Source: Terriglobia bacterium (GTDB lineage: Bacteria > Acidobacteriota > Terriglobia > 20CM-2-55-15). From it: 64,000 nt of DNA. The stretch lies in contig OZ252023.1 of the NCBI GenBank assembly GCA_965247425.1, forward strand, positions 348,891 through 412,890. The letters run 5' to 3'. The notes beneath the pieces were generated by a model, which saw nothing but the letters and a program-made list of their open reading frames with translations, did no database searches and was not told where the DNA came from. Positions 11,468-62,257 of this stretch are shown here, piece by piece (the stretch's first letter is position 1; each line of letters opens with the position of its first letter). The position numbers and the translations under genes are program-made.

Positions 11468-11475
11468 GCCGATGC

Positions 11476-11811: not shown

Positions 11812-11813
11812 CC

Positions 11814-17678: not shown

Positions 17679-17681
17679 CTT

Positions 17682-18035
17682 TCAAGTCTCGCCTTCGAGG
17701 ATGAGACCGATTGCGCCGACCAGTCGCTTCCAGCCTTCGGTCTCAGAGGTCAGTGTCTGGCGGCCAAGTTTTGTAATCGTGTAGTACTTGGCTTCATGAC
17801 CGCTCTCGTTGGTCCTCCAGGCCGAGGCCAGCAGACCGCGCTCTTCCATGCGGTACAGCGCCGGATATAGCGACCCCTGGCGGACCTGCAGAGCGTCACG
17901 GGACATCTGCTGAATGCGCCCGACGATTCCGTAGCCGTGCATGGGCTCCAGGGCGACGACCTTCAGGACCAACATTTCAAGAGTGCCCTGCAGCAAACGG
18001 GCTTCTGCTGAGCGAGGTTGATCTTGCCTAGGCAT
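17682..18035 (-). CDS. PadR-family transcriptional regulator
   Basis: QGTLEMLVLKVV...HGYGIVGRI...GSLYPALYRMEERGLL...KYYTITKLGRQTL. Lies 3 nt upstream of the permease start. Confidence 0.9.
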   Translation of the reverse strand: MPRQDQPRSAEARLLQGTLEMLVLKVVALEPMHGYGIVGRIQQMSRDALQVRQGSLYPALYRMEERGLLASAWRTNESGHEAKYYTITKLGRQTLTSETEGWKRLVGAIGLILEGET

Positions 18036-18118
18036 TCTAGGTGCAGTCTCCGATGGAATGCCTAGAGCGTCAAGGCATATTTGACGGTTACCGGCGATCT
18101 ATGTTGATGCTTTGAAAG

Positions 18119-28924: not shown

Positions 28925-29860
28925 TCACTCGAAGAGAGTCCGGCCCGTCAACCGCAAAAACACGTCTTCCATCGTGGATCGGCGCACGAGCGCGCTGTGG
29001 AGTGGAATGTTGTGCGAGTGGACACGTTGGAGCGCATGTTCGCCGTCGGTCGTGTAAACCAGTGTCCGATCGGCAAGCACCTCGATCCGTTCGGCCAGAC
29101 GGCCCAGTTGGCCGTCGATGCCCACGGGTATGCCGTCTGGGAAGCGCAGCTCCAACACTTCCTTGGTTGAATAGCGCTCGATGAGCTCACGCGGCGAGCC
29201 TTCGGCCACGATCTTCGCCTTGTCCATCACCACCAGTCGATCGCATAGCTGTTCGGCCTCGTCCATGTAGTGTGTCGTCAGCAACAGCGTGGATCCGCTC
29301 CGCTTGAGCTGATACAGGCGTTCCCAGATGACGTGGCGAGCCTGCGGGTCGAGACCCGTGGTCGGTTCGTCGAGGAGGACTATTTGCGGATCGTTGATCA
29401 ATGCCCGGGCAATGGTCAGGCGGCGCTTCATGCCCCCCGACAGCGGCTCCACCTGGGAATCGGCTCGTTCGGATAGCTGGACGAACTCGAGTAATTCGTC
29501 GGCCCGGGGGCGGGCGAGGCGACCGGGGATGTCGAAGTAACGCGCATACATCAGGAGGTTTTCCCGGACCGTGATCTCGGTGTCCAGGTTGTCCTGCTGG
29601 GGCACAACCCCCATTCGGGCCTTGATCCGGCTGGCATCGGTGCGTGGATCCATACCCATGACACTGAGCTCCCCCTCCGTCACCGGCGACGCGCAACCGA
29701 CCATACGCATCGTCGAGGTCTTACCGGCGCCATTTGGACCGAGGAATCCGAACGATTCGCCCTTGTGGACGTCGAAATCGATGGCGTCCACCGCAGTCAA
29801 TGCGGAGAACTTCTTCGTCAGATTCCGCGCCCGAACGATGGGTTCAACGGTAGGAGGCAT
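28925..29860 (-). CDS. ABC transporter ATP-binding protein (DrrA/NodI-like)
   Basis: Walker A GPNGAGKTST, signature LSGGMKRRLTIA, Walker B VLLDEPTTGLD. Confidence 0.9.
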   Translation of the reverse strand: MPPTVEPIVRARNLTKKFSALTAVDAIDFDVHKGESFGFLGPNGAGKTSTMRMVGCASPVTEGELSVMGMDPRTDASRIKARMGVVPQQDNLDTEITVRENLLMYARYFDIPGRLARPRADELLEFVQLSERADSQVEPLSGGMKRRLTIARALINDPQIVLLDEPTTGLDPQARHVIWERLYQLKRSGSTLLLTTHYMDEAEQLCDRLVVMDKAKIVAEGSPRELIERYSTKEVLELRFPDGIPVGIDGQLGRLAERIEVLADRTLVYTTDGEHALQRVHSHNIPLHSALVRRSTMEDVFLRLTGRTLFE

Positions 29861-34221: not shown

Positions 34222-36960
34222 TCATCCCTCCCGGAGCGCCTCGGCAGGTTCGACGCCGAGCGCCCTCCGCGCGGGCACGATGCATGCGAGCAAACACACC
34301 ATCATCATGAGCGCCGCATAGGCCACGACCAGCCCGACCTCCCGCCCGGACAGTACCCCGATTACGGCGCGCACCAGCGCGGCTACCAGACCGCCTCCCG
34401 CGATAATGCCGATCGCGACCTCGGCGAGCGGCCGCGAGAAGATCGCCGCGACGATCCGTCTTCGATCGGAGCCCAACGCCACACGAATCCCGATTTCGCG
34501 GGTCCGCCGCGAGACGGTGAACTCCATGACCGCGAAGACACCCGCGAGCGAGAGGAGCAGGGCGATGGCACTCACCAGGACGAGGAGCCAGAACAAGAAG
34601 CCCATCTCCAGCCACAACGTCTCTCCGACTTCGTCGAGAGGCAGGATCGCATGGAGCCGCAGAGTGGGGTCGACCGCCGCGGCGACCTGCCGGAGCCTCG
34701 GTGCGAACGACTCCGGGTCTCCTCCGAGTTGTATGGCCAGGTGGGTTGGGGAGGTGTCGCCGGGTGTCACGGGATAGTAGAGGCCCGCGTCTTCGTCCGG
34801 GTCCCCGTTGACCATGCCCAGATCGGCTACGACGCCGACGATCTCATACCACGGGCCCGGTTCCTCGCCCGCTGGGGCGGCTTCCTCGCCCGCTGGGGCG
34901 GCGTCACGAACTCTCCGTCCGATCGGGTTGCGGCCTCCCAGGATTCGCCCCACGAAGGACTGATTCACGATCACCACGCCCGGGTTGGAGCCCACATCGC
35001 CGGAGTGGAAGCCGCGGACCGAGAGGATCGGCGTATCCAGGACATCGAAGTAGTTCAGATCGATGGAAGCGGCTCCGATTCGGTGAAGAGCCACAGCGTC
35101 CGGCGCCGGATCGGGACCATCCACCTCCATCCATCGCTGAGGGTGATGCGTGCGGGGCAACCGGTCGACGAAGGTCATTCCGGTTACGCCAGGCTCCCCC
35201 GTCAGGCGCCGTTCCAACTCTCGGTACGTCTCTCGGAGGCGCACACGGAACTGTTCGGGGGACGGGTCCCCGGAGGTGCCGAATGGGATCTCCGGTTCCA
35301 TCTCGAGCCGCACCGAAAGGTACTCCTCGGCCTGGAATCCGACATCCAGAGTCTGGACCCGGACCACCTCCCGTCGCGCGAAGAACGCGGTCGCGGGGAA
35401 AGCGACCGTGACCGCCACCTGAGTGATGATTACCGCGGTCCACACGCCGCCGAACCGCAGTCGGTTGCCGCCCCCGGCGGCTGCCTGTCGGAGGCGCGCC
35501 TCGACGCTCTGGCCGGTCACCTTCAGGGCGGGCACGATCCCCGCGATCCCCGCGCCGAGCACCGTGAGCAGGCCCGCGTAGAGTATGGTTGTGGCTGCCA
35601 GGTTGTCGTTGAACCAGAACGGGAGCCGTCCTCCGGACTCAATCCGGAACACACCCAGCCACCACCGCAGTCCGAACCCCGCGGTCGCTAGCCCCGCGAG
35701 TGCGGCCACACACCCGAGCACCAGCGCTTCGGCGAATAGCTGCGTGATGATCCGGCCGCGGCTTGCCCCCAGGGCGGTCCTTACGACGATCTCGCTCTCT
35801 CGGGTTGCGGCACGCGCGAACATCAACAAGGCGACGTTGCCGCAGACCAGGACCAGTAGCATCACCAGGAAGACATTGATCGACATGAACCCCAACGATT
35901 CCCAGCCCGATATGTTCGAGATCGACTGCGCGTACGGCAAGACCTGAGGAACCAGCCGATCTTCGGTGTCCGAAAGGTCCGCTCCGGAGCGCAAGCCGAT
36001 GGAGTTCAATTCCGCCTGCGCCTCGGTAAGCGAGAAGCCGGGAGCGAGACGGCCGAAGACCCGGATCGCAGGGCCCTGGTGCCGTGGGTAGTCCAGGGCG
36101 TTCAGCCGTAGCGGGACCCAGAGGCTGTGCGCCACCGGGAACCGGAAGCCTTCCGGCATGACGCCAATTATCGTGGCCGGGGCGGTACCCAGGCGCACAG
36201 TTCGTCCGACCACCTCTGGAGCTTTCGCGAAACGTGTCTGCCAGACGTCGTGGCCGATGACGACCACCGGCGGTGCCCCGACCCGTTCGTCCGCCTCGAG
36301 CAGGGACCGGCCCAGCAGCGGCGGTACGCGGGCCAGTTGGAACGCAGACGCGCTGATTTCCGCCACCTCGGTTGGCGCGGCTCGCCCGCCATCGATGATC
36401 AGGTTGCGCTCAAGCGTCCGGAAGGCACCGAGGTCTTCGACCGACCGGAGTTCCTCACGCCACGTGACGAAGTCGTCGAACGCCCGTGCTTCCACCCTGT
36501 TCGATGTCGTGTTCCAGAGCCGGAGACCGACGATGCGATGGCCCTCGTCCAACGGTAGTGTGGGGTGGACCACCTGGATCACGAACTCGAAAGCACTCGC
36601 GCCAACGGCGATGGCGAATGCGATCGCGAGGCCACCGACCAGCGTCAGCCCCGGGTACTTGACCAGCATCCGGAAACCCAGCTTGAAATCCAGCCAGGAG
36701 GCCCAGGTGGTCCGACCGCGTCCGGGCGGCTCGGCTTTTGACCAAGCGGGCGGACTGCTCCTCGGTCGCCGGATTCGATCGCGCATCAGTATGGTCGCCA
36801 GATCCAGTGCCTCAAGGCCGGTCAGGAGACCGCCAATCACGCGACCATGTCGCTGGACCCGACTACGGTGTGCTTCCTCCAGGTCCCCGAGGACATCCTC
36901 GGCTCGACCCGGCGGTGATACGTGTCGTAACAATGCCAGGGCCCATCTGGGTGCTGTCAT
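34222..36960 (-). CDS. ADOP-family permease with N-terminal prefix domain (type B)
   Basis: 912 aa. Prefix RAEDVLGDLEEAHRSRVQRHG. Two FtsX-like blocks. C-terminal IVPARRALGVEPAEALREG. Confidence 0.9.
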   Translation of the reverse strand: MTAPRWALALLRHVSPPGRAEDVLGDLEEAHRSRVQRHGRVIGGLLTGLEALDLATILMRDRIRRPRSSPPAWSKAEPPGRGRTTWASWLDFKLGFRMLVKYPGLTLVGGLAIAFAIAVGASAFEFVIQVVHPTLPLDEGHRIVGLRLWNTTSNRVEARAFDDFVTWREELRSVEDLGAFRTLERNLIIDGGRAAPTEVAEISASAFQLARVPPLLGRSLLEADERVGAPPVVVIGHDVWQTRFAKAPEVVGRTVRLGTAPATIIGVMPEGFRFPVAHSLWVPLRLNALDYPRHQGPAIRVFGRLAPGFSLTEAQAELNSIGLRSGADLSDTEDRLVPQVLPYAQSISNISGWESLGFMSINVFLVMLLVLVCGNVALLMFARAATRESEIVVRTALGASRGRIITQLFAEALVLGCVAALAGLATAGFGLRWWLGVFRIESGGRLPFWFNDNLAATTILYAGLLTVLGAGIAGIVPALKVTGQSVEARLRQAAAGGGNRLRFGGVWTAVIITQVAVTVAFPATAFFARREVVRVQTLDVGFQAEEYLSVRLEMEPEIPFGTSGDPSPEQFRVRLRETYRELERRLTGEPGVTGMTFVDRLPRTHHPQRWMEVDGPDPAPDAVALHRIGAASIDLNYFDVLDTPILSVRGFHSGDVGSNPGVVIVNQSFVGRILGGRNPIGRRVRDAAPAGEEAAPAGEEPGPWYEIVGVVADLGMVNGDPDEDAGLYYPVTPGDTSPTHLAIQLGGDPESFAPRLRQVAAAVDPTLRLHAILPLDEVGETLWLEMGFLFWLLVLVSAIALLLSLAGVFAVMEFTVSRRTREIGIRVALGSDRRRIVAAIFSRPLAEVAIGIIAGGGLVAALVRAVIGVLSGREVGLVVAYAALMMMVCLLACIVPARRALGVEPAEALREG
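34861..34902. repeat. perfect in-frame 21-bp tandem duplication inside the ADOP gene
   Basis: ttcctcgcccgctggggcggc occurs twice (34861-34881 and 34882-34902). It encodes the duplicated APAGEEA in ...AAPAGEEAAPAGEEPGPW. Confidence 0.9.
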
Positions 36961-37313
36961 CGGGTCTCCAGGATCATGTCATCGAGTTCTGCGATCATCG
37001 ACAGGATGGCCCCTGTCGTTGCCCGGACGGAGGCGAGACCCTCCGGTTCCACCGTAACGAGCCGTCGCGCCTTGCCTCCCCGCTCCGGTCGCGGATCCCC
37101 CAGGCGCGTCGACACCAGACCCTTGGACTCGAGCCGTTCCAGAGTCGTGTAAACGTTCGCCCGCCTCACCGAACGTCCCGTCCTCTGTTCGATGTCCTCG
37201 ACAATCGAGACGGTGTAGGCTTCAGTCGGCCCCAAACGGAGAGCGGCGAGCACCACGAGGAGCTCGAACTCCGCGAGAGGCTTTGGACGCGGGCCCCCGT
37301 TTATTTTAGTCAT
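36957..37313 (-). CDS. PadR-family transcriptional regulator
   Basis: Winged-helix pattern FELLVVLAALRLGPTEAYTVSIVEDIE...VYTTLERLESKGLVS. Its stop overlaps the permease start (ATGA). Confidence 0.85.
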   Translation of the reverse strand: MTKINGGPRPKPLAEFELLVVLAALRLGPTEAYTVSIVEDIEQRTGRSVRRANVYTTLERLESKGLVSTRLGDPRPERGGKARRLVTVEPEGLASVRATTGAILSMIAELDDMILETR

Positions 37314-37378
37314 GTTGTGACTATACTAACATCTGGTACGGCGCTCGGACAAGAATGGACGCGGTTGTGACGAGTGTC

Positions 37379-40108
37379 TCAGTCCTCTCTCAGTGCTGTC
37401 ATCGGATCGATGTGCATCGCTCTTCTGGCCGGCAGGTATGCGGCCACGAGGGCGACCAGGAAGAGTGTTCCCGAAGTGCCGAGGAACGTCCGCGGATCCA
37501 CCGGCTCGATGCCGAACAGCAACCCCTCGAGGAAGCGCGTCGTCCACCACGCGCCGACCAGGCCCAGGAGGATCCCGAGCACGGTGACGCCGAGGCCCTG
37601 CCTCAGAACCAGCGCCAACAGCGAGCTGCGATTCGCACCGAGGGAGGCTCGCAAACCCAGCTCGCGGGTTCGGCCCGCCACTGTGAATGCGATGGTCCCG
37701 TAGAGACCGGCGGCCACCAGGAACAGCGAGATACCCGCGAAGGTGCCCAGAAGCATCGAGACCACACGGTGGCGTGCCGTCACGCTTGCCGCTCGCTCTT
37801 CCATCGTCATTACCGAAGTCAGCGCGAGGCTGGAGTTCAGTTCAGCCAACGTCCGGCGGATGATCGGGACGAGGCTTTGAGGGTCGCCCTGTGTCCGTAC
37901 CATGAGGCCCGTCGAAGGTCGAGGCGCCTGCCGCATGGACACCCAGCCCTGCAGTTCGGGCGCGAGGCCAAAGCCCTGCTCGAACTGCAGGCTTCGGACG
38001 ACTCCGACCACCGTGACTCCATTTCCCGCGAAGTCCGCCCACCCGAGCTGGATTGTCCGGCCGATGGGATTCCCATTGGGAAACAGGACGTCGACGGCCC
38101 TTTGGTTCAGCACGATCACGCGCTCGTTGTCTGTTCCGTCACCGGCTTCGATGTCCCGGCCTTCGAGGAAGTCGGCGCCGAGCAGGCCCAGATGTCCGTC
38201 CGCGACCGGCTGCAGTCGCACCCAGGTATGCATTTGGGGTATCAGTTCGGGGTCACCCTCGGACCCCATGACGATGGTTCGGTAGGTGGGTCCGCCCATC
38301 GGTATCTCACCCACCGTCGCGCCGACCACGCCTGGGAGGGCTCGGACCCGCTCAAGGAAATCGAGATGGAAGGTCGCCAGATCTACTCCGGCCTGCTCCT
38401 CGGCCGGGGTCAGCCCGTAGACCGCCGTCAGGAGCCGCTCGGAGTCGTAGCCGACATCGACGCTCTGGAGGTTTGCCAGGCTTTGCATCATCAGTGTCGC
38501 ACCCGTCATCAGCACGAGGGCCACGCCGACCTGAAAGACGACCAACGCGGTCTGGCCCGGGAGGCCGAAGGCCGTCGGTGCGGCTCCGAGGCTCGCGCCC
38601 CCTCCCTTGAGAGTCGCGGCCGGATTGATTCGGGCTGCCTGCAGGGCCGGCAAGATCCCGAAGACGACTCCCACACCGCCCGTCAATAGTGCGCCGAACA
38701 TCAGGACACCCCAGTCGAGCGACAAATTGTCCGGGTCGAGGTACTCGAGGCCACGATCACTGCCCGTGCCCACGGCTTCGGTGAGCCACGCGCCGAGCAC
38801 GTCGAGGCCGACCCACGCGACCCCAATACCCAGCACGCCCCCCATGACCGCCAACGAGAGGCTCTCGGTCAGCAGCTGTCTCACGAGCCGTGCCCGTCCC
38901 GCGCCCAGCGAGGCTCGGACAGCCGCCTCACGCCCTCGCGCCGCTCCGCGGGCAAGCAGCAGGCTGGCCAGGTTGGCAGTCGCGACCAGCAGGACCAACG
39001 CAACCGCCCCGAAGAGTGCGAACATCGAGGTTTCCGCAACGGGATTCACCCGCGCCGTGCGGTACGGTACGACGTCTGCTCCCGAGACCAGCCTCGAAGC
39101 GGCCACCGGCGGCGGGAAGCGTTCCATGATCGTAGCGCCGAAAATTTGCACTTCGCTGCGTGCGCTCTCCTGCGTGAAGCCTGGAGCGAGACGACCGATG
39201 AGGTTGAGCGTCTGGTTCCAGGCGTCATCCAACAGACTGTCGTTGTCCACCTCGCGCATTGCCGAGAACGGGATCCAGAGCTCGGCTCCCCCGGTGATGC
39301 CGTCGAAGCCCGGTCCCACGACACCGAGTACGGTGAAACGCAGACGGTCCAGGGTCATGGATGCGCCGACCGCGTCGGGCGAGGCCCCCATGCGTGTTTG
39401 CCAGAAGCCATGGCTGACGAGCGCGACCATGTGGGGATCACCGTTGTCGACCTCGTCGGGTCCGAAAACTCTACCGCGGATGGCTCCGATGCCCAGCAGG
39501 TCGAATAGTGCGGGGGTGACAGTCTCCACTCCGATGACTGCCGGGTTGCCCAGTTCGGTCAATGTCATGGTCCGGAGACCGTAGCCGGCGATGGTGTCGA
39601 TGGACCGGACTTCGTCGACGAGTGCTTGATACCTGGGATAGGACCATTTGCTGATCCCCATGGTTTCTTCGGACCTGCCGAACAAGCTATCCACGACGAC
39701 CAGTCTTTCGGCCTCGGGGAAGGGAGGCTCGGCGAGCACAGCCTGCTCGAGTACGCTGAAGAGTGCGGTGTTCGCGCCGATCGCCATGGCCAGCATCAGC
39801 ACCGCCGCGGCCGTGAACCCCGGACTGCGGGTCAACGTCCGGAGTGCGTATCTGGCGTCCTGCAACAAAATGTCCATTCTCCACCCCTCCTTCCATTCCC
39901 ATAACCCATGCCCGAACGCCCCGGTGAGAAACGCGACCAGTCGCACCGGATTTTCCTTGCTGTTGCGGAGTTGCCAGAGCTCCGCCTCCCACTCCATCAG
40001 CCATTCCCGCCGGCCCCTGAACGGCACCAGAAGGTTCGCCACACGCAGCGCACGTCGGCTCCACCGTGTGATTGAGTCGTTGGGCCACAGGGTTCCAGAA
40101 TCGCTCAT
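37379..40108 (-). CDS. ADOP-family permease with N-terminal prefix domain (type C)
   Basis: 909 aa. Prefix GRREWLMEWEAELWQLR, then LLQDARYALRTLTRSPGFT. C-terminal YLPARRAMHIDPMTALRED. Confidence 0.9.
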   Translation of the reverse strand: MSDSGTLWPNDSITRWSRRALRVANLLVPFRGRREWLMEWEAELWQLRNSKENPVRLVAFLTGAFGHGLWEWKEGWRMDILLQDARYALRTLTRSPGFTAAAVLMLAMAIGANTALFSVLEQAVLAEPPFPEAERLVVVDSLFGRSEETMGISKWSYPRYQALVDEVRSIDTIAGYGLRTMTLTELGNPAVIGVETVTPALFDLLGIGAIRGRVFGPDEVDNGDPHMVALVSHGFWQTRMGASPDAVGASMTLDRLRFTVLGVVGPGFDGITGGAELWIPFSAMREVDNDSLLDDAWNQTLNLIGRLAPGFTQESARSEVQIFGATIMERFPPPVAASRLVSGADVVPYRTARVNPVAETSMFALFGAVALVLLVATANLASLLLARGAARGREAAVRASLGAGRARLVRQLLTESLSLAVMGGVLGIGVAWVGLDVLGAWLTEAVGTGSDRGLEYLDPDNLSLDWGVLMFGALLTGGVGVVFGILPALQAARINPAATLKGGGASLGAAPTAFGLPGQTALVVFQVGVALVLMTGATLMMQSLANLQSVDVGYDSERLLTAVYGLTPAEEQAGVDLATFHLDFLERVRALPGVVGATVGEIPMGGPTYRTIVMGSEGDPELIPQMHTWVRLQPVADGHLGLLGADFLEGRDIEAGDGTDNERVIVLNQRAVDVLFPNGNPIGRTIQLGWADFAGNGVTVVGVVRSLQFEQGFGLAPELQGWVSMRQAPRPSTGLMVRTQGDPQSLVPIIRRTLAELNSSLALTSVMTMEERAASVTARHRVVSMLLGTFAGISLFLVAAGLYGTIAFTVAGRTRELGLRASLGANRSSLLALVLRQGLGVTVLGILLGLVGAWWTTRFLEGLLFGIEPVDPRTFLGTSGTLFLVALVAAYLPARRAMHIDPMTALRED

Positions 40109-40425
40109 GACTCGGCTTCGCCTCGGGCAGTTTCCGCGAAGATGCCGGCGCCGACCGCGCCCAGGTTGGCCCTCGCTTCCTTGAGGGCTCGCTCACCGTC
40201 AGGTGTGAGCTGGTAATACCGACGGCGAGGTCGACGCTCGGCTTCCGCGACAGCGTGGTCCTCCCAGTGCCCCTGGACGAGCCCTCGTTTCTCCAGGCGG
40301 CGCAGGGTCGTATAGACCGTCCCAGGCAGCAGCCCGGAATGCTGCGTGATGTCGAGACCGTAGCGCGCGCCCTGTTGAAGCGTCGCGAGAATTGCCGCCG
40401 TCGTCAGGCCGAGGGGTCGTGCCAT
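40105..40425 (-). CDS. PadR-family transcriptional regulator
   Basis: Start at MARPLG (cat at 40423-40425, GAGG RBS). ARYGLDITQ...GTVYTTLRRLEKRGLV...RRYYQLTPDGERAL. ATGA overlap with the permease. The longer tracked ORF (to 41361) is rejected. Confidence 0.85.
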   Translation of the reverse strand: MARPLGLTTAAILATLQQGARYGLDITQHSGLLPGTVYTTLRRLEKRGLVQGHWEDHAVAEAERRPRRRYYQLTPDGERALKEARANLGAVGAGIFAETARGEAES

Positions 40426-40524
40426 GTGGAACCTCGTTGGATAGGGACTTGTCCGAAAGTCCGCATATGTGTAGAGTAGATCACACTGTATAGTAGATAA
40501 CACAGAAGCGATGGAGGGGGCAAG

Positions 40525-41295
40525 ATGAAGAGGACGATGTGGGCGACGATGCTGGTCCTGTTGGCGGCGGGCTCGACAGCGTCCGCCGAGGCTCAGGGCG
40601 CCCGGACGATCGAGATACCGCTCAGGGTCGAGGATGGTCGCTTGATCGTACCGGTCGAGGCATCCGACGGCACCGAGCTTCAGTTCATCGTGAGCACCAG
40701 CTACACGGTCCTCTCGAAGTCGGGCGCGGCCCGGCTCGGGGATCGGCCGTCCCTCACGATGGGAGGCGTGGTGGTGCGCACAGATACCGTCCCGGCGTTC
40801 CCGGACGAAGAACTCACCGTCGCCGGGAAGGTCATGGACGGAATGGTCGGTTCGTCGACTTTCAATAAGTTCGACTTGTTGATCGATGTTCCCAGGGGCA
40901 GGCTCCTCCTGAAGCCGATCGGGCGCTCGGTCGAGTGGGAAGGCGTGAAGCTGTCCCAGCCCGTGCCCGTCCGGGTCATGCACGGGCTCCTGTTCGGCCT
41001 CGACGTCGAGTTCGAGGGCCAGGCATACGGTGCGACGCTCGAGTTGAAGCGTCCGGCTCTCGTTGTCAGCCAGGCGGTGAAGGCTCAGACGGGAATCGAC
41101 GACGACGATGTCGGCACCCTTCGCCTGGGATACGCGACGTTTGCAGATGTTCCGGCCCGGGTACGCGACCTCCCTTTGTTCTCGGGCTGGGATCCGAGCG
41201 GCAAGGGCTTCGTCGTTGTGGGGGCACCGATCACGTTCGACTGCGCGATTTCTCTCAGCTGGGCGCATCGTGAAATCAGGACGTGTGTGCGATGA
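40525..41295 (+). CDS. secreted retropepsin-like (clan AA) domain protein lacking the catalytic Asp
   Basis: Signal peptide MKRTMWATMLVLLAAGSTASAEA. The layout EDGRLIVPVEASDGTELQFIVSTSYTVLS...MDGMVGSSTFNKFDLLIDVPRGRLLLKP parallels bacterial aspartyl-protease domains, but DTGA is replaced by STSY. Confidence 0.55.
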   Translation: MKRTMWATMLVLLAAGSTASAEAQGARTIEIPLRVEDGRLIVPVEASDGTELQFIVSTSYTVLSKSGAARLGDRPSLTMGGVVVRTDTVPAFPDEELTVAGKVMDGMVGSSTFNKFDLLIDVPRGRLLLKPIGRSVEWEGVKLSQPVPVRVMHGLLFGLDVEFEGQAYGATLELKRPALVVSQAVKAQTGIDDDDVGTLRLGYATFADVPARVRDLPLFSGWDPSGKGFVVVGAPITFDCAISLSWAHREIRTCVR

Positions 41296-41402
41296 GTTGG
41301 AGACCTGCGGCATGTCGTCCCAACCTGTTTTCACACTGGATGTCCCGGCCACCATCGCCATCGGCTACGTCATCTACCTGTTCAAGGTTCACGCGCGAAT
41401 AG

Positions 41403-47278: not shown

Positions 47279-47727
47279 CCATACAAATCTATGCCTAGGA
47301 AATATTCCTGGTTCGCGACATCCTAAAGATCCTTTGCGGTGCGTATTATTTGGACCGCTCTGTCGCCGGGCACGGGAAGAGAATCTGGCACCGTAAGGTG
47401 CTGGAAATACTCTGGAATACTTGAAACACTCCTTCTCCGCTTCGAAGTATCGTGATGACGATCCCTGCGTAGCATCCCATTTGAATGTATTGGAGCTGCC
47501 GAAGACTAGGAAAAATGCTGGCATTTTCCCGGTCTCAAATGAGAAAATCGCACCTCAAAAATCCGGGCTGCCAGACGCTCTCGCCCGAATTCTGCAAGAC
47601 GCATCCCGAACAGCATCCGACCCCGGCCCCTGCATTACGAGCCGCGTGGATGTGGGTGTGTTTGCGTCCGAGTGTCGGACGTCGGAGACGGGGCAGCGGA
47701 AATTCCGCTAACGAGGAGATCAGACTG

Positions 47728-48471
47728 ATGACTTTACATGTGTTTCGACGGTTAACGCACAATGCAGCTCTCTTGTTCTTGATCATGTTCTTTCCGACGC
47801 TGGCCCTGGCCGCGGGTCCCTGCAGCGGCCTTCCGAGCCACGCCGATCTCCGCCAAGCCCTCACGGACGTTGCCGTGGACGAAGTGTTCGGTACCAACGG
47901 AGGATTTGGCCTCAACATGTGGGGGACGATCGTCAATCGCGATGGCGAAGTCTGCGCTGTCGCGTTCACCGGCGATGACCGCGGCGATCAGTGGCCCGGC
48001 AGTCGCGTGATATCGGCCCAGAAGGCCAACACGGCGAACGCCTTCAGTTTGCCGGACCTGGCTCTGTCGACGGCGATGTTGTTTTCGCTGGTACAGCCCG
48101 ACGGAAGCCTGTTCGGACTGCAGGAAAGCAACCCGGTGGATGTGGACGTGGCGTACGGCGGAGATTCAAGAAACAACGGCCGGCACAACGATCCCATGGT
48201 CGGCAAGAAAATCGGAGGAGTCAACGTTTTCGGTGGTGGTCTGGCGCTTTATGATTCCGACGATGTCCTGGTTGGAGCCATCGGTGTCAGTGGTGACACG
48301 TCCTGTACCGACCACGTCATCGCATGGAGAACCCGTGCGTTGCTGGGACTCGACAATACACCGACAGTCGACAACATCATCTTCGACATCGCTCCCGACG
48401 CGAATGGTCATCTGGTCAGCGCCAGTGCCTTCGGGCATCCGACCTGCGGCGCCCCGGTCATCGTGCCGTAA
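47728..48471 (+). CDS. GlcG/HbpS-like (DUF336) heme-binding-type protein, secreted
   Basis: AGGAGA RBS plus an ATG at 47728 with signal FLIMFFPTLALAAGP. GGGLALYDSDDVLVGAIGVSGDTSCTDHVIAWR is typical of DUF336. Confidence 0.7.
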   Translation: MTLHVFRRLTHNAALLFLIMFFPTLALAAGPCSGLPSHADLRQALTDVAVDEVFGTNGGFGLNMWGTIVNRDGEVCAVAFTGDDRGDQWPGSRVISAQKANTANAFSLPDLALSTAMLFSLVQPDGSLFGLQESNPVDVDVAYGGDSRNNGRHNDPMVGKKIGGVNVFGGGLALYDSDDVLVGAIGVSGDTSCTDHVIAWRTRALLGLDNTPTVDNIIFDIAPDANGHLVSASAFGHPTCGAPVIVP

Positions 48472-56022: not shown

Positions 56023-56154
56023 CTATCGGTCTTCGAGGAGATTGCGGAGCTCGCTGAGGCGGCGATCACATTGCCTCTGCTTTCCGGACACCAACAACAT
56101 GTAACCGAAGATGGCGATCCAGACGACGATGTTGGCTGCGATGACCCAGCTCAT
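56023..56154 (-). CDS. ccmD: CcmD-like small membrane protein (alternative CcmD family)
   Basis: 43 aa: MSWVIAANIVVWIAIFGYMLLVSGKQRQCDRRLSELRNLLEDR. Single TM plus a charged tail. ATGA overlap with the ccmC stop. Confidence 0.65.
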   Translation of the reverse strand: MSWVIAANIVVWIAIFGYMLLVSGKQRQCDRRLSELRNLLEDR

Positions 56155-56653
56155 TTCGAGTACACCTGCTGTTGGAGGTATTCGATTTCCTGTCGGGTCT
56201 CTTCGACCGCCATGCGTTTTCGCACAAGGTGGGTGTAGATCGACAGGAAGGCGGCAAACGTTACGATGAAGGCGATGAACATGTCCGGGGTCAGGGCCGA
56301 ATTCGGATCTCCGGCCAGGACGGCCGAAGGGTGCTGGGTTCGCCACCATCGTATGGCCATGTAATTGACCGGAACGTCGAGGAAAGCCAGGATTCCGACC
56401 GCAGCCTGTACGGTGGCCCTCTTCCTCGGATCGGCGATGTAGGCTCCCAGCATCAGGTAACCGATGAAACTGACCCAAAGCACCAACTGCAGTGTCAGGC
56501 GCGCGTCCCAGGTCCACCAGATGCCCCAAATTGGCTTGGCCCAGATGACGCCCGTCACCAAGTTGATCGACGCGAACAGAACCGCGACTTCTGCCGAACA
56601 GCGAGCGACCCTGTCCCAGATCAAGTCTCGCTTCAAGAGGAAGCCAATGCTAG

Positions 56654-58391
56654 CCCGCATAAATCACCGAAAGGACCAGAAAAGGCCGCCCTGTTTGGCA
56701 TAAATCGTTTGTCGAGAACGGTTCAGAAACCAAACGGAGGCGGCCCTTATGAGTACAGAGTGTAAACAAACCACGTTCGAATTTCACGGACTTCTTCAAC
56801 GAAAAATGAAGGCGCGTTTCGACGGCGGCAAGATCACGTCTGACGCTGGAGTTCTGCTGCTGCGTGAAGTCGAAAAGCGGACCGGTTTGATCGATGGATT
56901 GGCGGGGTGTTTTAGCGATCATCGCGACCAACGGTTGATCGAACACACCGTGAAGGAGCTGTTGGGACAGCGGGTCTACGGGCTGTGCCTGGGATATGAA
57001 GACCTGAACGATCACGATCAGTTACGGACCGACCCGATGCTTGCGTTGGCGGTGGACAAAGCGGATCCGCTGGGAACGAATCGACGACAGGCCGGCGACT
57101 GGGGAAAGGCGTTGGCGGGCAAGAGCACGCTAAACCGATTGGAGTTGACCGGCGCCGAAGTCGGCGACCAGGAGCGGTACAAGAAGATCGCTATGGATGG
57201 GGACAAGATCGATCGTTGGATGGTCGATGCGTTTGTGGCAGCCCATAACAACACGGCGCCCGAAGAGATCGTTCTGGATCTGGACGCGACCGATGATCCG
57301 ATCCATGGTCAACAGGAAGGCCGGTTCTTTCACGGCTACTACCGCAACTACTGCTATCTGCCCTTGTACATCTTCTGTGGAGAGCATCTGTTGTGCGCTC
57401 GGCTGCGCCCGTCCAATATCGATGGGGCGGCAGGATCAGTCGATGAATTGGAACGTATCGTCGGCCAGATCCGTCAGAGCTGGCCGGACGTGTCGATCAT
57501 CATTCGGGCCGATTCCGGATTCTGCCGGGATGCATTACTGGACTGGTGTGAAACCCACCAGGTCGATTATGTGATGGGGTTGGCCAAGAACGACCGCCTC
57601 AAGCGAGAGATCGCTGACCAGATGATTCAGGCTGAAGCGGAGTTTCAGACCACTGGGAAATCGGCACGAGTGTTTAAGGATTTCCTGTACCGGACTCGAA
57701 AGAGCTGGAGCCGCACTCGTCGCGTTGTTGGCAAAGCCGAGTTCCTGGCCAAGGGCGCCAATCCCCGATTCGTGGTGACCTCACTGCCACCGGAACGACT
57801 CGGAGCCCAAGCGCTCTACGAAGATTTCTATTGCGCACGCGGCGACATGGAGAACCGGATCAAAGAACAGCAACTGGATCTATTTGCCGACCGCACCAGT
57901 GCGGGAACCATGCGCGCCAATCAGCTCCGACTGTATCTGTCCTCAGCCGCCTACATGCTTATGCAGGCGTTGCGTCGTCTCGGTCTCAAAGATACCGCGA
58001 TGGCCCATGCCCAATGCGGAACCATCCGTCTGAAGCTTCTTAAGATCGGTGCGCGTATCCGCCTCACGGTCCGCAACGTCTGGATCTCGATGTCGGAGGC
58101 CTATCCCTATGCCGACGTCTTTGCTCTCATAGTGAGAAACCTGCAATCAATTCCGCTTCGTTGCTGACGACACCGAACCTTCAGATCCGAAAAACAGCGC
58201 CTCTCATCTGCCTCCCGGCGAGGCCTGCCTGCACTCGCCCATTCATGCCGATCTCCCGCCAAATGTCGCCGTGTCACAGGCTCAAAATCCGCCAATGTCC
58301 ACGGCTCGCTCACTCTCAGCTCCAAGTCTCGCCGCAAATCGCTTCTCGTATCCGAACACTGATCGATTCTCCGATTGGTGATCCATCCGGG
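56654..58391 (+). mobile_element. IS1380-family insertion sequence, copy 2 (1738 bp, CTAG target duplication)
   Basis: Inverse duplicate of 23576-25313. CTAG at 56650-56653 and 58392-58395. The flanks reconstitute ccmC. Confidence 0.92.
56749..58167 (+). CDS. IS1380-family DDE transposase
   Basis: 472 aa, identical to the copy-1 protein except D to N (AAHDNT versus AAHNNT). Confidence 0.88.
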   Translation: MSTECKQTTFEFHGLLQRKMKARFDGGKITSDAGVLLLREVEKRTGLIDGLAGCFSDHRDQRLIEHTVKELLGQRVYGLCLGYEDLNDHDQLRTDPMLALAVDKADPLGTNRRQAGDWGKALAGKSTLNRLELTGAEVGDQERYKKIAMDGDKIDRWMVDAFVAAHNNTAPEEIVLDLDATDDPIHGQQEGRFFHGYYRNYCYLPLYIFCGEHLLCARLRPSNIDGAAGSVDELERIVGQIRQSWPDVSIIIRADSGFCRDALLDWCETHQVDYVMGLAKNDRLKREIADQMIQAEAEFQTTGKSARVFKDFLYRTRKSWSRTRRVVGKAEFLAKGANPRFVVTSLPPERLGAQALYEDFYCARGDMENRIKEQQLDLFADRTSAGTMRANQLRLYLSSAAYMLMQALRRLGLKDTAMAHAQCGTIRLKLLKIGARIRLTVRNVWISMSEAYPYADVFALIVRNLQSIPLRC

Positions 58392-58800
58392 CTAGATGCG
58401 AATACGACGAAGAATCCGATGTAGCCCACCAGGCCGGCCGACACGTGGAAGTAGAAAATCCGTTGAACGGTTCCCATGGTGGCTTCGGTGGGGGCGTAAA
58501 CGAACACGGCCAAGGTGGCGGGAATCAATACAACCAAGACCATCAGGGAACCCGCTGTCCCCCCCAGTATTTCGGTGTGTTGCCGGTATGCCGAACGAAA
58601 CAGGTCCCAAACCGTGTGAACCCACAACTTCATGAGATCGAGCGTTCCACTCCGGCATGCATCACGGCACAGATCCAGAAACGCCTGTTCCAGTTTCTGC
58701 GAATATGAAACGCGAAACTCCCTGGGATAGACTCGGGTCAACAACCGGTACAGACGCCAGGACCAAACGACGACGCGGGGGTCCCCGCTGACATTGGGTG

Positions 58801-59172
58801 TCATACCTTCACCAACTTCCTCGCCCTTACAACCTGAACCAGGCGCGTGAACCTCTCGGCCTCGGCCGTGGCGACTCTTCGACCAAAACCCGTCAGCCGG
58901 TAATAGCGTCGTCGTTGATCATCCATATCCGGATCCGGCCGTTCGTCCGACTCTTCGATGAGCGTTGCACCCAGCAGACGCTTGATGGATGTATACAGCG
59001 TTCCCGGTCCCAGTTTGAGGCTCCCTTCCGTCAATTCCCGAACGTGATGCATGATCGCGTAGCCGTGGCGGTCCGCATCAGTCAGGGACAGCAGGATGTG
59101 GAAGTCCGCATGGTTCAGAGGCAACAGACTTGAAAGATCTTTGTCGTCGGCATCGTATTTCCGGGTACGCAT
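58801..59172 (-). CDS. PadR-family transcriptional regulator
   Basis: Start at MRTRKYD (cat at 59170-59172). FHILLSLTDADRHGYAIMHHV...GTLYTSIKRLL...RRYYRLTGFG. ATGA overlap with the prefix::ccmC start. Confidence 0.85.
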   Translation of the reverse strand: MRTRKYDADDKDLSSLLPLNHADFHILLSLTDADRHGYAIMHHVRELTEGSLKLGPGTLYTSIKRLLGATLIEESDERPDPDMDDQRRRYYRLTGFGRRVATAEAERFTRLVQVVRARKLVKV

Positions 59173-59309
59173 GGGGAGTACTGTATCATAGATGGATATA
59201 TCATATATAGATATATTGGCCTTTCCTGAAAAATGCGATGATGATCGACAAGTAGCCGCCCTGACTATATTCATTGACACTATATTCATATGGGCTATAT
59301 ATTCGAGTC
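59173..59309. promoter_or_regulatory. AT-rich divergent PadR/PadR control region with phased direct repeats
   Basis: GATATAT at 59195 and 59210. ACTATATTCAT at 59264 and 59279, plus a variant at 59294 (15-nt phasing). TTGACA (59274-59279), 18 nt, TATATT (59298-59303), then 6 nt to the ATG at 59310. Confidence 0.5.
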
Positions 59310-59672
59310 ATGACTGACAAGCACACTGACGTTGCTGCTCTCCTCCCTCTTCCATCCGTCACGTTCCACATTCTGATGGCGCTTGCAGGCCAGGACCGCC
59401 ACGGGTACGCGATCATTCAGGAAGTCGCGGCCCGAACGAACGGGGAGGTCCGCATCGGTGCGGGCACCTTGTATCGTTCCGTTCAGCGAATGCTCGAACA
59501 GGGTTTGATCGTCGAAACCCGGGACCGGCCCGCACCGGACCTGGACGACGAACGGCGTCGCTATTACCGGATCACGTCGTTCGGTACCGGCGTGGCGAAA
59601 GCGGAGTCTCGCCGTCTGGCACTGATGCTCAAGCTGGCACGCGCCACCGGTTTCGCCCCGGGGAGGGTTTGA
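59310..59672 (+). CDS. PadR-family transcriptional regulator
   Basis: MTDKHTDVAALLPLPSVTFHILMALAGQDRHGYAIIQEV...GTLYRSVQRML...RRYYRITSFG. Confidence 0.9.
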   Translation: MTDKHTDVAALLPLPSVTFHILMALAGQDRHGYAIIQEVAARTNGEVRIGAGTLYRSVQRMLEQGLIVETRDRPAPDLDDERRRYYRITSFGTGVAKAESRRLALMLKLARATGFAPGRV

Positions 59673-62257
59673 TGCGTCTATACCGAATCCTCCTCTTCAT
59701 TTATCCGGCCGCGTTCCGTGCGGGATACGAGGAAGAGTTGTGTCACGTGTTCAGTGAACGGCGACGGGAGTCCACGACATTCCTGTCGCTGCTCGGGCTG
59801 TGGCTCGAGACCCTCGGAGACCTCCTGTCAAATGCCCTGCGGGTGCACTGGGACATTCTTCGCCAGGATCTTCGCTACGCGTTGAGAACCCTCGGGCGTG
59901 CGCGCGGCTTCGCTCTGACCGCCGTCGTCGTCACGGGGCTTGGCATCGGAGCCAATACGGCTGTCTTTTCGATTACCGACCACGTCCTCATTCGGCCGCT
60001 GCCCTTCGCCGATTCCGAACGACTCGTGAAGATATGGGAGAGCCCCCGCGAATACTCGCGAATGGAGGCGTCGCCACCCAACTATCGGGACTGGCGTGAA
60101 CGAAGTGCGTCCTTTGAAGCGATGGGGGCGTACTTTGCCATATCAGTCAACCTGCTCGGTATCGGCGATCCGCGGCGACTTCAAACCACGAAAGTGACAG
60201 CGGACGTTTTTGCCTTGCTGGACACCGGCCCCTTCGTCGGGCGGGTGTTCAGCGCCGATGATGATACCGAAGGCGCGCCCGGTACGGTCGTGCTCAGTTA
60301 CGGATTGTGGCTGAGGGAATTCGGTGGGGATAGAGCAGTGCTTTCGAGGGAACTTCGTCTGAATGACTCGACCTACAGCATCATCGGGGTGATGCCTCCG
60401 AATTTTTACTTTCCGAGCCGGGAAACGGCACTCTGGATGCCGATGCAACTCGGAAGCCAGGACTTCGAAGATCGGGACAACAACTACTTTCAGACGATAG
60501 CGAGGCTGAAACCCGATGTTTCGCTGGAGGAAGCCCGTGCCGAGATGTCGATCATCGCGGGGCAACTGGAACTCGAGTATCCCGAGACAAACACCCGAAC
60601 CGGCGCGACGGTTCGCTTTCTTCGAGATGAAGTTCCTGAACAGTCCCGGCTGCTGCTGGCGGCGCTCTTTGCTGCCTCGGCGTGCGTGTTGCTGATCACC
60701 TGTACCAATCTGGGAAACCTCCTTCTTGCCCGGACGTTGGGACGGCGAAAGGAACTGACGATTCGTACGGCGATCGGCGTCGGCCGGGAAAGGCTCGTGC
60801 GCCAGTTGCTTACCGAAAGCCTTGTCCTGGTTTTTCTTGGGGGAGCCCTGGGCGTGCTGGTCGCCATTATGGGGTTGCCACTTCTGACACGGCTCGTCCC
60901 GATGTCCCTTCCGATTGGCGATCCGGCCGTGCTCGATTTTCGCGTGCTGGTCTTTGCCGGTGTACTGACCGGCCTGACAGGAATCGGATTCGGGGTGATA
61001 CCTGCCCTTCGAATCTCGATCGGTGCTCGCGCGAAAAGCCTTCTTGAAATCCGAAACGCCGGAGTCGGCGGACGAAACCAGCGGTTCCGTTCCGTACTGG
61101 TGATTGTCGAGGTCGCGTTGTCCCTGGTCCTGCTCATCTCGTCCGGTCTGTTGATCCGGGCCCTGTGGCAGGTCCAGGACATCGATCCAGGTTTTCGCGG
61201 TGAGGACGTGCTGACCCTGCGGACCGAGTTGCCGATGCCGAAATACTACCCCACGGCCCGACGCGCGCAACTCTACACGCAGGTTCTGTCCGAGGTCCGA
61301 AGCCTGCCAGGCGTGTCGAGCGCCGCCTACGTCAGCTTCCTTCCGATGGTCATGCGTGGAGGAGTCTGGCCGGTGGGAGTCGATGGCCTTGATGTGGATG
61401 GTCCGCCCGACAGAGCCATCCTTCGATATGCCACACCGGACTTCTTCGAGACGTTGTCCATCCCCCTGACGGCCGGCCGGGACCTCAGTGAATTCGACAC
61501 GGATGATGTCGCTTCCGTCGCCGTTGTCAGCCAGTCCTTCGCTCGCCGGTACTGGCCTGGCGAGGATCCCCTGGGCCGCAGCTTCAGCTTCGCCTTTCGA
61601 GACCGGGTCGTCGCCGGTGTCGTGGGTGACATCCACGTCCGGGGCCTCGAGGCGAGGAGCGAGCCTCAAGTCTATCTGCCCTATAAGCAGGTTCCCGACG
61701 GCTCGATCATTTTTTATGCACCGAAAGACATGGTCGTCCGTTCTTCGCAAGACCCCGATTCGTTGATCCCCGACATCCGCCGTATTGTAGGAGAAGCCGA
61801 CCCGGAACTGCCGGTGTCGGATATACGTCTCCTTGCCGACATCGTCGATTCGGAAACCGCACCCCGCCGGACCCAGATCATCGTGCTCGCCGCGTTTGCC
61901 GCTCTGTCCATGTTGCTGGCGGGCATCGGCATCCACAGCCTTCTTTCTTTCGGGGTGTCCCAGCGTACCGGCGAAATAGGGGTCCGGATGGCAATGGGGG
62001 CACGGTCCGGCGACATTCTACGGATGGTGTTCCGGGAGGGTGTGCACCTTGCCGTTGTTGGCGGTGTGGTGGGCCTCGGGGCTGCCTACGCCGCCGGCCG
62101 GACGATGGAGGCGCTTCTGGCCGGCGTCAGGCCAGGCGATGCGGTCACGTTTCTGGCTGCCGTCGGACTGGCTTTAGCCATGACCGTCACGGGGAGCCTC
62201 CTGCCGGCCCTTCGTGCGGCCCGTGTGGATCCGACCGAGGCGCTTCGCGCCGAGTGA
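59672..62257 (+). CDS. ADOP-family permease with N-terminal prefix domain (type D)
   Basis: The ATG overlaps the PadR stop (TGATG); the tracked ORF uses TTG at 59669. Prefix LYRILLFIYPAAFRAGYEEELCHVF, then LRQDLRYALRTLGRARGFA. C-terminal LLPALRAARVDPTEALRAE. Confidence 0.9.
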   Translation: MRLYRILLFIYPAAFRAGYEEELCHVFSERRRESTTFLSLLGLWLETLGDLLSNALRVHWDILRQDLRYALRTLGRARGFALTAVVVTGLGIGANTAVFSITDHVLIRPLPFADSERLVKIWESPREYSRMEASPPNYRDWRERSASFEAMGAYFAISVNLLGIGDPRRLQTTKVTADVFALLDTGPFVGRVFSADDDTEGAPGTVVLSYGLWLREFGGDRAVLSRELRLNDSTYSIIGVMPPNFYFPSRETALWMPMQLGSQDFEDRDNNYFQTIARLKPDVSLEEARAEMSIIAGQLELEYPETNTRTGATVRFLRDEVPEQSRLLLAALFAASACVLLITCTNLGNLLLARTLGRRKELTIRTAIGVGRERLVRQLLTESLVLVFLGGALGVLVAIMGLPLLTRLVPMSLPIGDPAVLDFRVLVFAGVLTGLTGIGFGVIPALRISIGARAKSLLEIRNAGVGGRNQRFRSVLVIVEVALSLVLLISSGLLIRALWQVQDIDPGFRGEDVLTLRTELPMPKYYPTARRAQLYTQVLSEVRSLPGVSSAAYVSFLPMVMRGGVWPVGVDGLDVDGPPDRAILRYATPDFFETLSIPLTAGRDLSEFDTDDVASVAVVSQSFARRYWPGEDPLGRSFSFAFRDRVVAGVVGDIHVRGLEARSEPQVYLPYKQVPDGSIIFYAPKDMVVRSSQDPDSLIPDIRRIVGEADPELPVSDIRLLADIVDSETAPRRTQIIVLAAFAALSMLLAGIGIHSLLSFGVSQRTGEIGVRMAMGARSGDILRMVFREGVHLAVVGGVVGLGAAYAAGRTMEALLAGVRPGDAVTFLAAVGLALAMTVTGSLLPALRAARVDPTEALRAE

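Follow-up and report, generated by a model that had tools for sequence, protein, structure and literature searches.

A permease-type prefix domain fused to a second CcmC copy under a PadR regulator in a narrow lineage of Terriglobia

What could a ccmC-ccmD pair be doing when it stands apart from the other ccm genes and is wired to a PadR regulator in the manner of a permease module? The question is raised by a 64,000-nucleotide stretch of a Terriglobia bacterium genome (contig OZ252023.1, positions 348,891 to 412,890; hereafter, the window), for which a preliminary description made from the sequence alone had proposed a permease-type prefix domain fused to CcmC. We found that the locus is a three-gene operon, padR-prefix::ccmC-ccmD, i.e., a PadR-prefix module of the kind that normally heads ADOP permeases, in which the MacB/FtsX-type permease body is swapped for CcmC. 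The features of the locus are collected in Table 1.

In the window, the fusion gene lies on the minus strand and is split in two by an IS1380-family insertion sequence (IS). Its 5' part, called as a protein of 162 aa (cluster member P0392), encodes the prefix, the first transmembrane helix (TM1) and the first conserved histidine (FYFHV, H120). A second open reading frame (ORF; 56660-56151, minus strand) carries the remainder of CcmC, in which the WWD motif reads WAKPIWGIWWTWDARLT, the second histidine lies within RWWRTQHP and a cytoplasmic helix forms the C-terminus. The IS encodes a 472-aa transposase (56749-58167, plus strand) recognized by NF033539 (401 bits, cut-off 180) and also by PF13701, ends in the imperfect inverted repeats CCCGCATAAATCACC and CCCGGATGGATCACC, and is flanked by a CTAG target-site duplication (56650-56653 and 58392-58395). 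Removal in silico of the IS and one CTAG copy yields a single clean ORF of 912 nt, coding for 303 aa. The site is empty at exactly the same CTAG in a 15-kb metagenomic contig (L001), which is 94-95% identical to the window and collinear with it (~19 kb), and it is empty also in the sister contigs L173-L178. The uninterrupted L001 site at that position justifies the conceptual removal of the IS, and the 303-aa product proposed earlier for 56151-58804 is borne out by the reconstruction and by the empty site alike. The fusion gene is, thus, knocked out in the window and intact in sister strains.

Table 1. Features of the fusion locus and of the neighbouring ADOP module (window coordinates).
Feature	Position	Strand	Details
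Fusion gene, 5' part	58396..58804	-	codons 1-136 and first base of codon 137; ORF reconstruction
Fusion gene, 3' part	56151..56653	-	PF01578, TIGR01191; rest of CcmC
IS1380-family insertion sequence	56654..58391	+	1,738 bp; NF033539, PF13701; splits the fusion gene
CcmD paralogue	56023..56154	-	43 aa, single TM helix; TIGR04391 CcmD_alt_fam 43.4 bits (cut-off 24)
Type-3 permease prefix	58565..58756	-	fusion residues 17-80; BLASTP to neighbouring ADOP, prefix HMM
Fusion-linked PadR	58801..59172	-	123 aa from ATG at 59172; PF03551 54.4 bits (cut-off 27)
Divergent PadR of neighbouring ADOP module	59310..59672	+	120 aa; PF03551 57.5 bits; stop overlaps ADOP ATG (TGATG)
Neighbouring ADOP permease	59672..62257	+	MacB_PCD and FtsX; type-3 prefix at residues 1-63; TIGR03434 870.6 bits
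Candidate PadR operator	59184..59213	.	two tandem 15-bp palindromic units TATC-N7-GATA upstream of fusion-linked padR (repeat family D2, inverted repeat I1)
Candidate operator of divergent padR-ADOP operon	59264..59308	.	two to three tandem ~15-bp units (ACTATATTCAT)

A second IS1380 copy at 23576-25313 has the same length of 1,738 bp, differs by 2 mismatches (99.9% identical), lies in the opposite orientation, is likewise flanked by CTAG and sits in the apparent 3' end of another minus-strand ADOP/FtsX-like permease gene. Both window copies show the inverted repeats and the 4-bp CTAG duplication of the IS1380 family. In the sister strains, IS1380-type transposases are found at three differing positions near the locus (L173, 1-1134; L174, 9388-10939; L177, 3141-4556), the L177 insertion clipping the 3' end of the ADOP gene and that of L174 lying just downstream of ccmD. 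The second window copy and the copies found elsewhere around the locus in sister contigs lead us to conclude that the element is active and that its insertion into the fusion gene is recent and specific to the window strain; the fusion locus is a hot spot for this element.

By profile and motif content, residues ~83-303 of the fusion are a complete CcmC. Residues 57-241 match PF01578 (95.9 bits, cut-off 29.9), and TIGR01191 (ccmC) covers residues 105-283 with 116.6-117.3 bits, under its cut-off of 186. As the canonical CcmC of the same genome, encoded inside a full ccm operon, likewise stays under this cut-off (127.7 bits), the low score is probably a lineage effect and not a sign of decay. 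We aligned one intact orthologue of the fusion (P0001) as the query with 70 canonical CcmCs (alignment A3, 71 sequences). The fusion matches at 23 of the 23 invariant columns, which is true by construction of that list; H120 and H244 (RTQHP) fall in invariant columns and align with the Escherichia coli CcmC positions in 7F02_C. The WWD motif (WGxxWxWDxRLT) is present, with W174, W179, W183, D186, R188, L189 and T190 invariant across the 71 sequences. Departures from the consensus number eight at the 69 columns that are at least 90% conserved, compared with 1.9 ± 2.0 for the 70 canonical proteins, and all eight are conservative. The match to the PDB CcmC chain 7F02_C has an E value of 1.2e-19. 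In a full-length AlphaFold2 model the CcmC body reaches pLDDT >90, and a Foldseek search with this model retrieved 8CE1_C (E 9.7e-9, TM-score 0.75) and 7F02_C (E 3.5e-8, TM-score 0.73; target-normalised); the body is, accordingly to this model, predicted to adopt the six-TM CcmC fold. The YFHV, Trp-rich and RTQHP motifs listed in the preliminary description are all in place. CcmC proteins have a cytoplasmic N-terminus, and they hold heme for its passage to CcmE at the outer face of the membrane, the side on which the histidines and the WWD motif are located. Because both heme-ligand histidines and the WWD motif are kept, the fusion should still bind heme.

The gene is tightly packed between its two operon partners. 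An ATGA overlap joins the PadR stop (TGA) to the fusion start (ATG), and another joins the fusion stop to the CcmD start, so that the coupling to an upstream PadR and a downstream 43-aa CcmD-like ORF holds at both junctions, with the latter ORF recognized by TIGR04391. CcmD is a small partner within the CcmABCD complex. A T-arm-like stretch downstream of ccmD was considered as a tRNA and dismissed, since the window yielded neither a tRNA nor a tmRNA.

Is this ccmC the housekeeping copy? The nearest prefix-less CcmCs (P0002-P0005) are encoded in canonical ccmE-F-H-x-x-A-B-C-D operons. On two sister chromosomes both loci are present, with the operon at 0.20-0.22 Mb and the fusion at 5.43-5.44 Mb of ctg471348 (5.84 Mb), and with the operon at 2.21-2.23 Mb and the fusion at 2.93-2.94 Mb of ctg118096 (6.24 Mb), i.e., ~0.6-0.7 Mb from each other on the same chromosome. 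As a canonical CcmC of 224 aa belonging to the cluster of these prefix-less proteins (P0397) is found on a 6,411,617-bp contig, as are the window halves P0387 and P0392, and as the two loci coexist on the sister chromosomes, the window genome possesses a canonical ccmC too. The fused ccmC is a second copy, not the housekeeping one, and a full System I operon resides in the same genome; the question of the housekeeping copy raised in the preliminary description is answered in this way. Within the 64-kb window, no homologues of ccmB, ccmE, ccmF or ccmH were found, and the only ccmA-like match is a generic ABC ATPase (28925-29860), in line with the earlier remark that no ccmA/B/E/F/G/H gene is adjacent. 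Nor does a full ccm operon lie just outside the window.

Within one genome, the fusion CcmC and its canonical counterpart share 66% identity, and the two CcmDs share 48% (E 4e-15). In a neighbor-joining tree, the fusion clade forms a long branch that is sister to the canonical clade of its own lineage, a position by which horizontal acquisition of the CcmC part was rejected. Canonical CcmC orthologues of neighbouring lineages are 86-98% identical to each other, and the fusion CcmC is 7-11 percentage points farther from the outgroups than the canonical copy is. Judged by the tree and these distances, the pair was duplicated within the lineage from the 3' end of the ccmEFH..ABCD operon and has since diverged fast. 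With System I CcmC-CcmD (CcmABCD; PDB 7F02 and 8CE1) it shares the fold, the two heme-ligand histidines, the WWD motif and a coupled single-TM CcmD. Yet, it differs from System I CcmC in having an 80-residue cytoplasmic N-terminal domain, which occurs in none of the 119 listed non-fusion CcmCs or the best 80 loci of each of two collection scans, in its position under a PadR and away from ccmAB/E/F/H, in its faster evolution and in an altered loop after the second histidine. Directly downstream of the canonical ccmD we observed a conserved antisense ORF of 43 aa with a single TM helix (MDSFTLAVVIGMVAVMLMLGFFVLVDKG; L170, 10923-11054, minus strand; also in L002, L084, L085, L169, L171 and L172), the sequence of which is unrelated to CcmD.

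The preliminary description had raised the idea of a regulated heme exporter or detoxifier in place of a cytochrome-maturation component; we considered it as a dedicated protein that works independently of CcmE and of cytochrome maturation. The isolation of the pair from ccmABEFGH and its wiring like that of efflux-type ADOP modules speak for such a role, as does the periplasmic loop following the second histidine, which reads HPSAVLAGDPNSALTPD against the consensus HPxPVIAGGExSGLDP. However, the operon encodes no energising ATPase and bears no heme-stress regulator signature, and CcmC, which holds heme for covalent transfer to CcmE, is not known to release it in free form. We regard an exporter or detoxifier as very improbable.

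The part that precedes the CcmC body has its closest counterpart next door. The neighbouring ADOP aligns through its residues 3-64 with fusion residues 17-80 (39% identity over 64 aa, BLASTP E 9e-13), which display the motif LYxxLxxxYPxxFRxxY ... W ... A..H.eIL. As the word index of the protein search gave no candidates for the 82-aa fusion prefix alone, a limit of that index, the prefix family was built with the neighbouring ADOP N-terminus as the query, and the first ~65 residues of 120 relatives were aligned, giving the consensus MRLYRaLLhLYPASFRaEYGeEM..vF..RRrdA......lW.....D...NA..VHWDILRQ. A hidden Markov model (HMM) made from 118 other ADOP prefixes, with the fusion excluded, scored the fusion prefix at 41 bits over HMM positions 2-63 of 65 (E ~1e-12, reckoned against the window ORFs) and the neighbouring ADOP prefix at 98 bits. 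The resemblance of the first ~75 residues to an ADOP prefix, noted initially from the sequence alone, is, thus, significant in a profile comparison. Eight of the ten most conserved residues of the family are retained in the fusion (Y4, L7, Y11, P12, F15, R16, Y19 and A57) at an overall identity of ~35%.

The LYPASFRAEYGEEM-type prefix family, represented in the window at 59672-59866 (plus strand) and 58565-58756 (minus strand), comprises 7,862 representative clusters at E<=1e-3 in a profile search of 1.84 billion representative proteins. The best 150 of these 7,862 members are all ADOP or frameshifted ADOP calls, bar one P450-like fragment; 30 of the 150 that seemed to lack an ADOP body were considered as new architectures and rejected, being mostly frameshifted ADOP calls along with that fragment. 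The latter (P0303, 159 aa) carries a type-3 prefix and a QDLRF box, followed by cytochrome-P450-like sequence (DPPDHTRLRGLV), and represents another chimera or a misassembly. In the fusion, the prefix runs straight into the CcmC TM1 through an in-frame junction just ahead of this helix; the QDLRY box (QDLRYxxRxL), TM1 and MacB_PCD/FtsX body that follow the prefix in ADOP proteins are missing.

Neither of the NCBIfam models for permease prefix domains 1 and 2 (NF038403 and NF038404) matched the fusion prefix, the neighbouring ADOP prefix or the family consensus at E<=10, although both models do find their targets in the window, where three other ADOPs are matched with 65.2, 54.4 and 35.6 bits. 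Pfam gave no match to the fusion prefix or to the family consensus. By these searches, the prefix is a third, uncurated type (type 3), distinct from both NCBIfam domains. The prefix and the full-length protein were modelled separately with AlphaFold2; the prefix is predicted, with moderate confidence (pLDDT ~65-72), to consist of three cytoplasmic helices (residues 9-25, 28-52 and 55-80), the last of which continues into TM1 (83-103).

The PadR gene ahead of the fusion belongs with this type of prefix. The fusion-linked PadR stays under the TIGR03433 (padR_acidobact) cut-off (60.7 vs 101.8 bits) and is 50% identical to the divergent PadR of the neighbouring ADOP module (BLASTP). The adjacent module was considered as a recent donor and rejected, given that PadRs sharing 50% and prefixes sharing 39% identity are old paralogues. 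In a comparison of 10 PadR sequences, those linked to type-3 prefixes, including the fusion PadR, form one clade with 46-82% identity within it; the fusion PadR is 46-54% identical to these and 21-35% identical to the PadRs of other prefix types. The PadRs of perm_prefix_1 proteins form a separate clade (36-63% within), and identity between the two groups is 18-31%. This co-variation, seen in a small sample of ten PadRs, suggests a cognate partnership of PadR and prefix.

With PadR-ADOP modules (TIGR03433/TIGR03434), the fusion operon shares the order of a padR followed by a start/stop-overlapping gene with a short helical prefix and TM1, a homologous prefix (in the adjacent ADOP and thousands of others) and a PadR of the matching clade; it is unlike them in that the body is a CcmC with six TM helices and not a MacB_PCD/FtsX duplicated permease. 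The TIGR03434 model itself covers only residues 64-862 of the neighbouring ADOP, i.e., it begins after the prefix. Each of the ADOP-type genes in the window is directly preceded by a PadR gene of its own, which amounts to six PadR modules in 64 kb. Among three further prefix-family members read in context, a PadR precedes the prefix gene in L086 and L087 and none does in L088; the two genes overlap by start and stop in L086, as they do in the neighbouring ADOP module of the window.

Two of these loci contain prefixes that have lost their permease. On an 859-kb contig, L086 (3639-4447) holds a PadR and a 148-aa prefix/TM1 stub with no permease body, beside an rve-type IS, while L088 (4001-4432) holds an orphan 143-aa prefix protein without PadR or permease; both stubs are remnants of broken ADOP modules. 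Most simply, the fusion operon would have arisen through an in-lineage duplication of ccmC-ccmD, followed by in-frame joining of the CcmC N-terminus to a type-3 PadR-prefix module devoid of its permease and by a burst of divergence in all four components. That intermediates of this kind occur is indicated by the truncated PadR-prefix stubs in other genomes, one of them beside an IS.

In the sister contigs L173-L178, gene callers place the start of the fusion-linked PadR at an upstream ATG, giving a protein of 135 aa; the window has ATA there (59205-59208), and the conserved start is probably the ATG at 59172, giving 123 aa. The additional N-terminal codons of the 135-aa calls overlap TATC-N7-GATA repeats, which we regard as a candidate PadR operator. 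The repeats on the side of the divergent padR-ADOP operon overlap its near-consensus sigma-70-like promoter (TTGACA-18-TATATT, 59274-59303). Both sets of repeats are largely conserved in orthologous loci, and the spacer between them carries indels.

How widespread is the fusion? Among the matches listed in a search with the whole protein, one is full-length (P0001, 303 aa, 97% identity); the other 119 show at most 69% identity, are ~211-249 aa long, cover ~62-76% of the query (the CcmC part) and all lack the prefix. The P0001 cluster has nine members, i.e., five intact 303-aa variants, P0390, P0389 and the window halves P0387 and P0392. One member, P0385, is present on nine contigs, and in the six places shown, from six samples, the synteny is identical: ADOP and its PadR on one side, then, in the opposite direction, PadR, fusion and CcmD, followed by a DDAH/ADI-like and a spermine-synthase-like gene. 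The intact fusion occurs on at least nine contigs, including the 5.8- and 6.2-Mb contigs at 20-22x coverage; some source assemblies have 2-3x coverage, and errors in them are possible. Uninterrupted orthologues in related genomes, for which the preliminary description had advised to look, have the PadR as their neighbour and the prefix at full length. The best 80 loci from GTDB representative genomes and the best 80 from JGI metagenome contigs include no fusion; long N-terminal matches in L006, L123, L131 and L160 were considered as fusions and proved to be ordinary CcmCs encoded behind ccmB. A literature search retrieved no relevant account of a PadR-linked CcmC, a permease prefix domain or a duplicated orphan permease. 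The architecture is, thus, new with respect to the domain libraries, the best collection matches and the literature searched, and combines known parts in one narrow uncultured lineage.

Is it maintained by selection? Eight DNA copies, belonging to six haplotypes, were compared. With a dN/dS of 0.13-0.25 (binomial p 0.0002-0.007), the CcmC part is now under purifying selection. For PadR the ratio is 0.18-0.25 in nine of the 10 informative pairs (p 0.003-0.014) and 0.46 in the window-L001 pair (p 0.16). The frame, the start and both ATGA overlaps are kept in all eight copies.

These values bear on the possibility that the fusion is an accidental chimera on its way to being lost: in an IS-rich genome, a rearranged PadR-ADOP truncated after the prefix would have been joined to a duplicated ccmCD and would now be tolerated, young and without a selected role. 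Several observations fit such a course. All known fusions come from a single narrow lineage, the PadR-prefix stubs and the orphan prefix of other genomes make its raw material common, the same IS1380 lies twice in the window and at varied places in L173, L174 and L177, the window copy is disrupted and P0390 and P0389 are aberrant, the pair is redundant with the canonical operon, and each of PadR, prefix, CcmC and CcmD stands on a long branch of its family. Yet the dN/dS of CcmC is significantly below 1 and that of PadR is ~0.2, all catalytic and invariant CcmC residues are kept with conservative departures from the consensus, and couplings and frame are preserved in every copy compared. A 34% amino acid divergence from the canonical copy with no disabling change in most strains is hard to square with neutral decay. 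On balance, we deem a chimera without a role unlikely, though it deserves to be taken seriously.

The most likely reading, to which we give about an even chance, is that the operon is an accessory, PadR-autoregulated unit for heme handling or heme sensing. With the CcmC N-terminus in the cytoplasm, the prefix would be a cytoplasmic three-helix domain continuous with TM1, and it may serve as a docking or signalling partner of its cognate PadR, an assignment based on the co-variation of PadR clades with prefix type. The CcmC body, together with its own co-diverged CcmD, would bind heme at the outer face, and its heme-loading or conformational state would be relayed via TM1 and the prefix to PadR, which would bind to, or dissociate from, the tandem TATC-N7-GATA repeats of the promoter region. 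Self-regulation by need or by heme would result, and the output may be an extra delivery of heme to CcmE, its sequestration or export, or a pure sensor. By analogy with the HAAS-PadR dyads described below, the type-3 prefix would link a membrane body and the state it is in to the cognate PadR. The unit would be dispensable, given the canonical System I operon, and the break in the window together with the aberrant P0390 and P0389 indicates that the gene is dispensable at least sometimes.

A precedent for such a relay is the HAAS domain, a short helical N-terminal domain found on varied multi-TM proteins, including FtsX/MacB_PCD permeases, for which signal relay to an adjacent PadR was proposed (Ravi et al., mSystems 2024, PMC11237479). 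It consists of three consecutive helices, the third of which is kinked at a conserved GxP motif (PMC11237479). The HAAS-PadR dyad resembles our locus in combining an all-helical cytoplasmic N-terminal domain with a stand-alone PadR-like winged helix-turn-helix protein, the gene of which always adjoins that of the HAAS protein (PMC11237479). In contrast to HAAS, the fusion prefix has no GxP and its conserved proline is that of YPxxFR, between helices 1 and 2; the list of fusions in the HAAS paper includes no CcmC partner (PMC11237479). Pfam gave no match of the fusion prefix to members of HAAS/DUF1700/DUF1048. The relation between the two domains appears to be one of analogy, or at most of very remote homology.

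A number of points weigh against the accessory-unit reading. An hhalign comparison of the prefix with perm_prefix_1, which bears GxP and was represented by a small alignment of four sequences, returned a probability of 0.2%, and a Foldseek search with the low-confidence prefix-only model (pLDDT 65) gave no usable match; the prefix models in general have low to moderate pLDDT (65-72). The dN/dS of the prefix ranges from 0.15 to 1.28, from 1-7 changes per class, which are too few to decide. The co-variation of PadR and prefix rests on 10 sequences, and the signalling model otherwise on positional analogy. All known copies fall into one cluster at ~96% amino acid identity or more, a spread too narrow to bear on long-term conservation. 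In addition, the window copy is disrupted by the IS, P0390 has its C-terminus out of frame and P0389 is a truncated call.

Some of the same points would favour an ordinary alternative CcmC/CcmD isoform, in which PadR is a small-molecule-responsive repressor, the copy plugs into CcmAB and CcmE under some condition, and the prefix remains as an inert leftover without a signalling role. In favour of it are a complete CcmC core and a co-diverged CcmD; the wide range of prefix dN/dS stems from few changes, and no homology of the prefix to the HAAS domain was detected. In System I, CcmC alone can load heme onto CcmE. However, a leftover would hardly be expected to keep eight of the ten most conserved family residues at ~35% identity, nor to stay in frame with an ATGA-coupled start in all copies, and the way in which prefix types follow PadR clades speaks for a functional link between PadR and prefix. 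Translation from an internal start at M88 would leave the first TM helix too short in comparison with canonical CcmC. An isoform with an inert prefix appears improbable to us.

The available sequence data would fit a heme exporter or detoxifier, an accessory heme-delivery unit, a heme sensor and a dispensable chimera equally well. A more novel reading is that the fused CcmC provides the input to a PadR switch tethered to the membrane, its heme occupancy being read via TM1 and the prefix and PadR being released or captured in response; we put this forward tentatively and think it unlikely. If true, it would be the first case of a member of a heme-handling protein family being used as a signalling receptor, and the fusion would be a natural domain swap, revealing the prefix as a transferable module for coupling to PadR, which also stands at the head of thousands of uncharacterised ADOP permeases. 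Soil and sediment bacteria contain very large families of paralogous ADOPs with their PadRs, the function and regulation of which are little understood. With the body exchanged for a protein whose structure is solved and whose ligand, heme, is well understood, the locus offers a tractable handle on the role of the prefix. It also shows that the CcmC-CcmD sub-module can be duplicated, detached from CcmAB and CcmE and put under separate control, which bears on how heme delivery is partitioned.

Apart from the fusion operon, the window contains five PadR and ADOP-type modules, at 11443-13973 (plus strand), 15036-18100, 34222-37330 and 37379-41361 (minus strand) and 59310-62257 (plus strand). Their ADOPs show four N-terminal prefix types, i.e., two perm_prefix_1, one perm_prefix_2, one untyped and one type 3. 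The untyped prefix, located in 37379-40108 (minus strand), has weak similarity to type 3 (E 0.017), and the 418-aa ORF that precedes it (40105-41361, minus strand) has a PadR domain at its C-terminus only, its start being probably over-called. Finally, in the window (~47725-48471, plus strand) and in L001 (10528-11274), hisS and a flagellin gene are separated by a gene for an HbpS-like/GlcG protein, of a family that binds or degrades heme (PF03928); this gene is absent from the same interval in L173-L177, representing a strain-level indel ~8 kb from the fusion operon.

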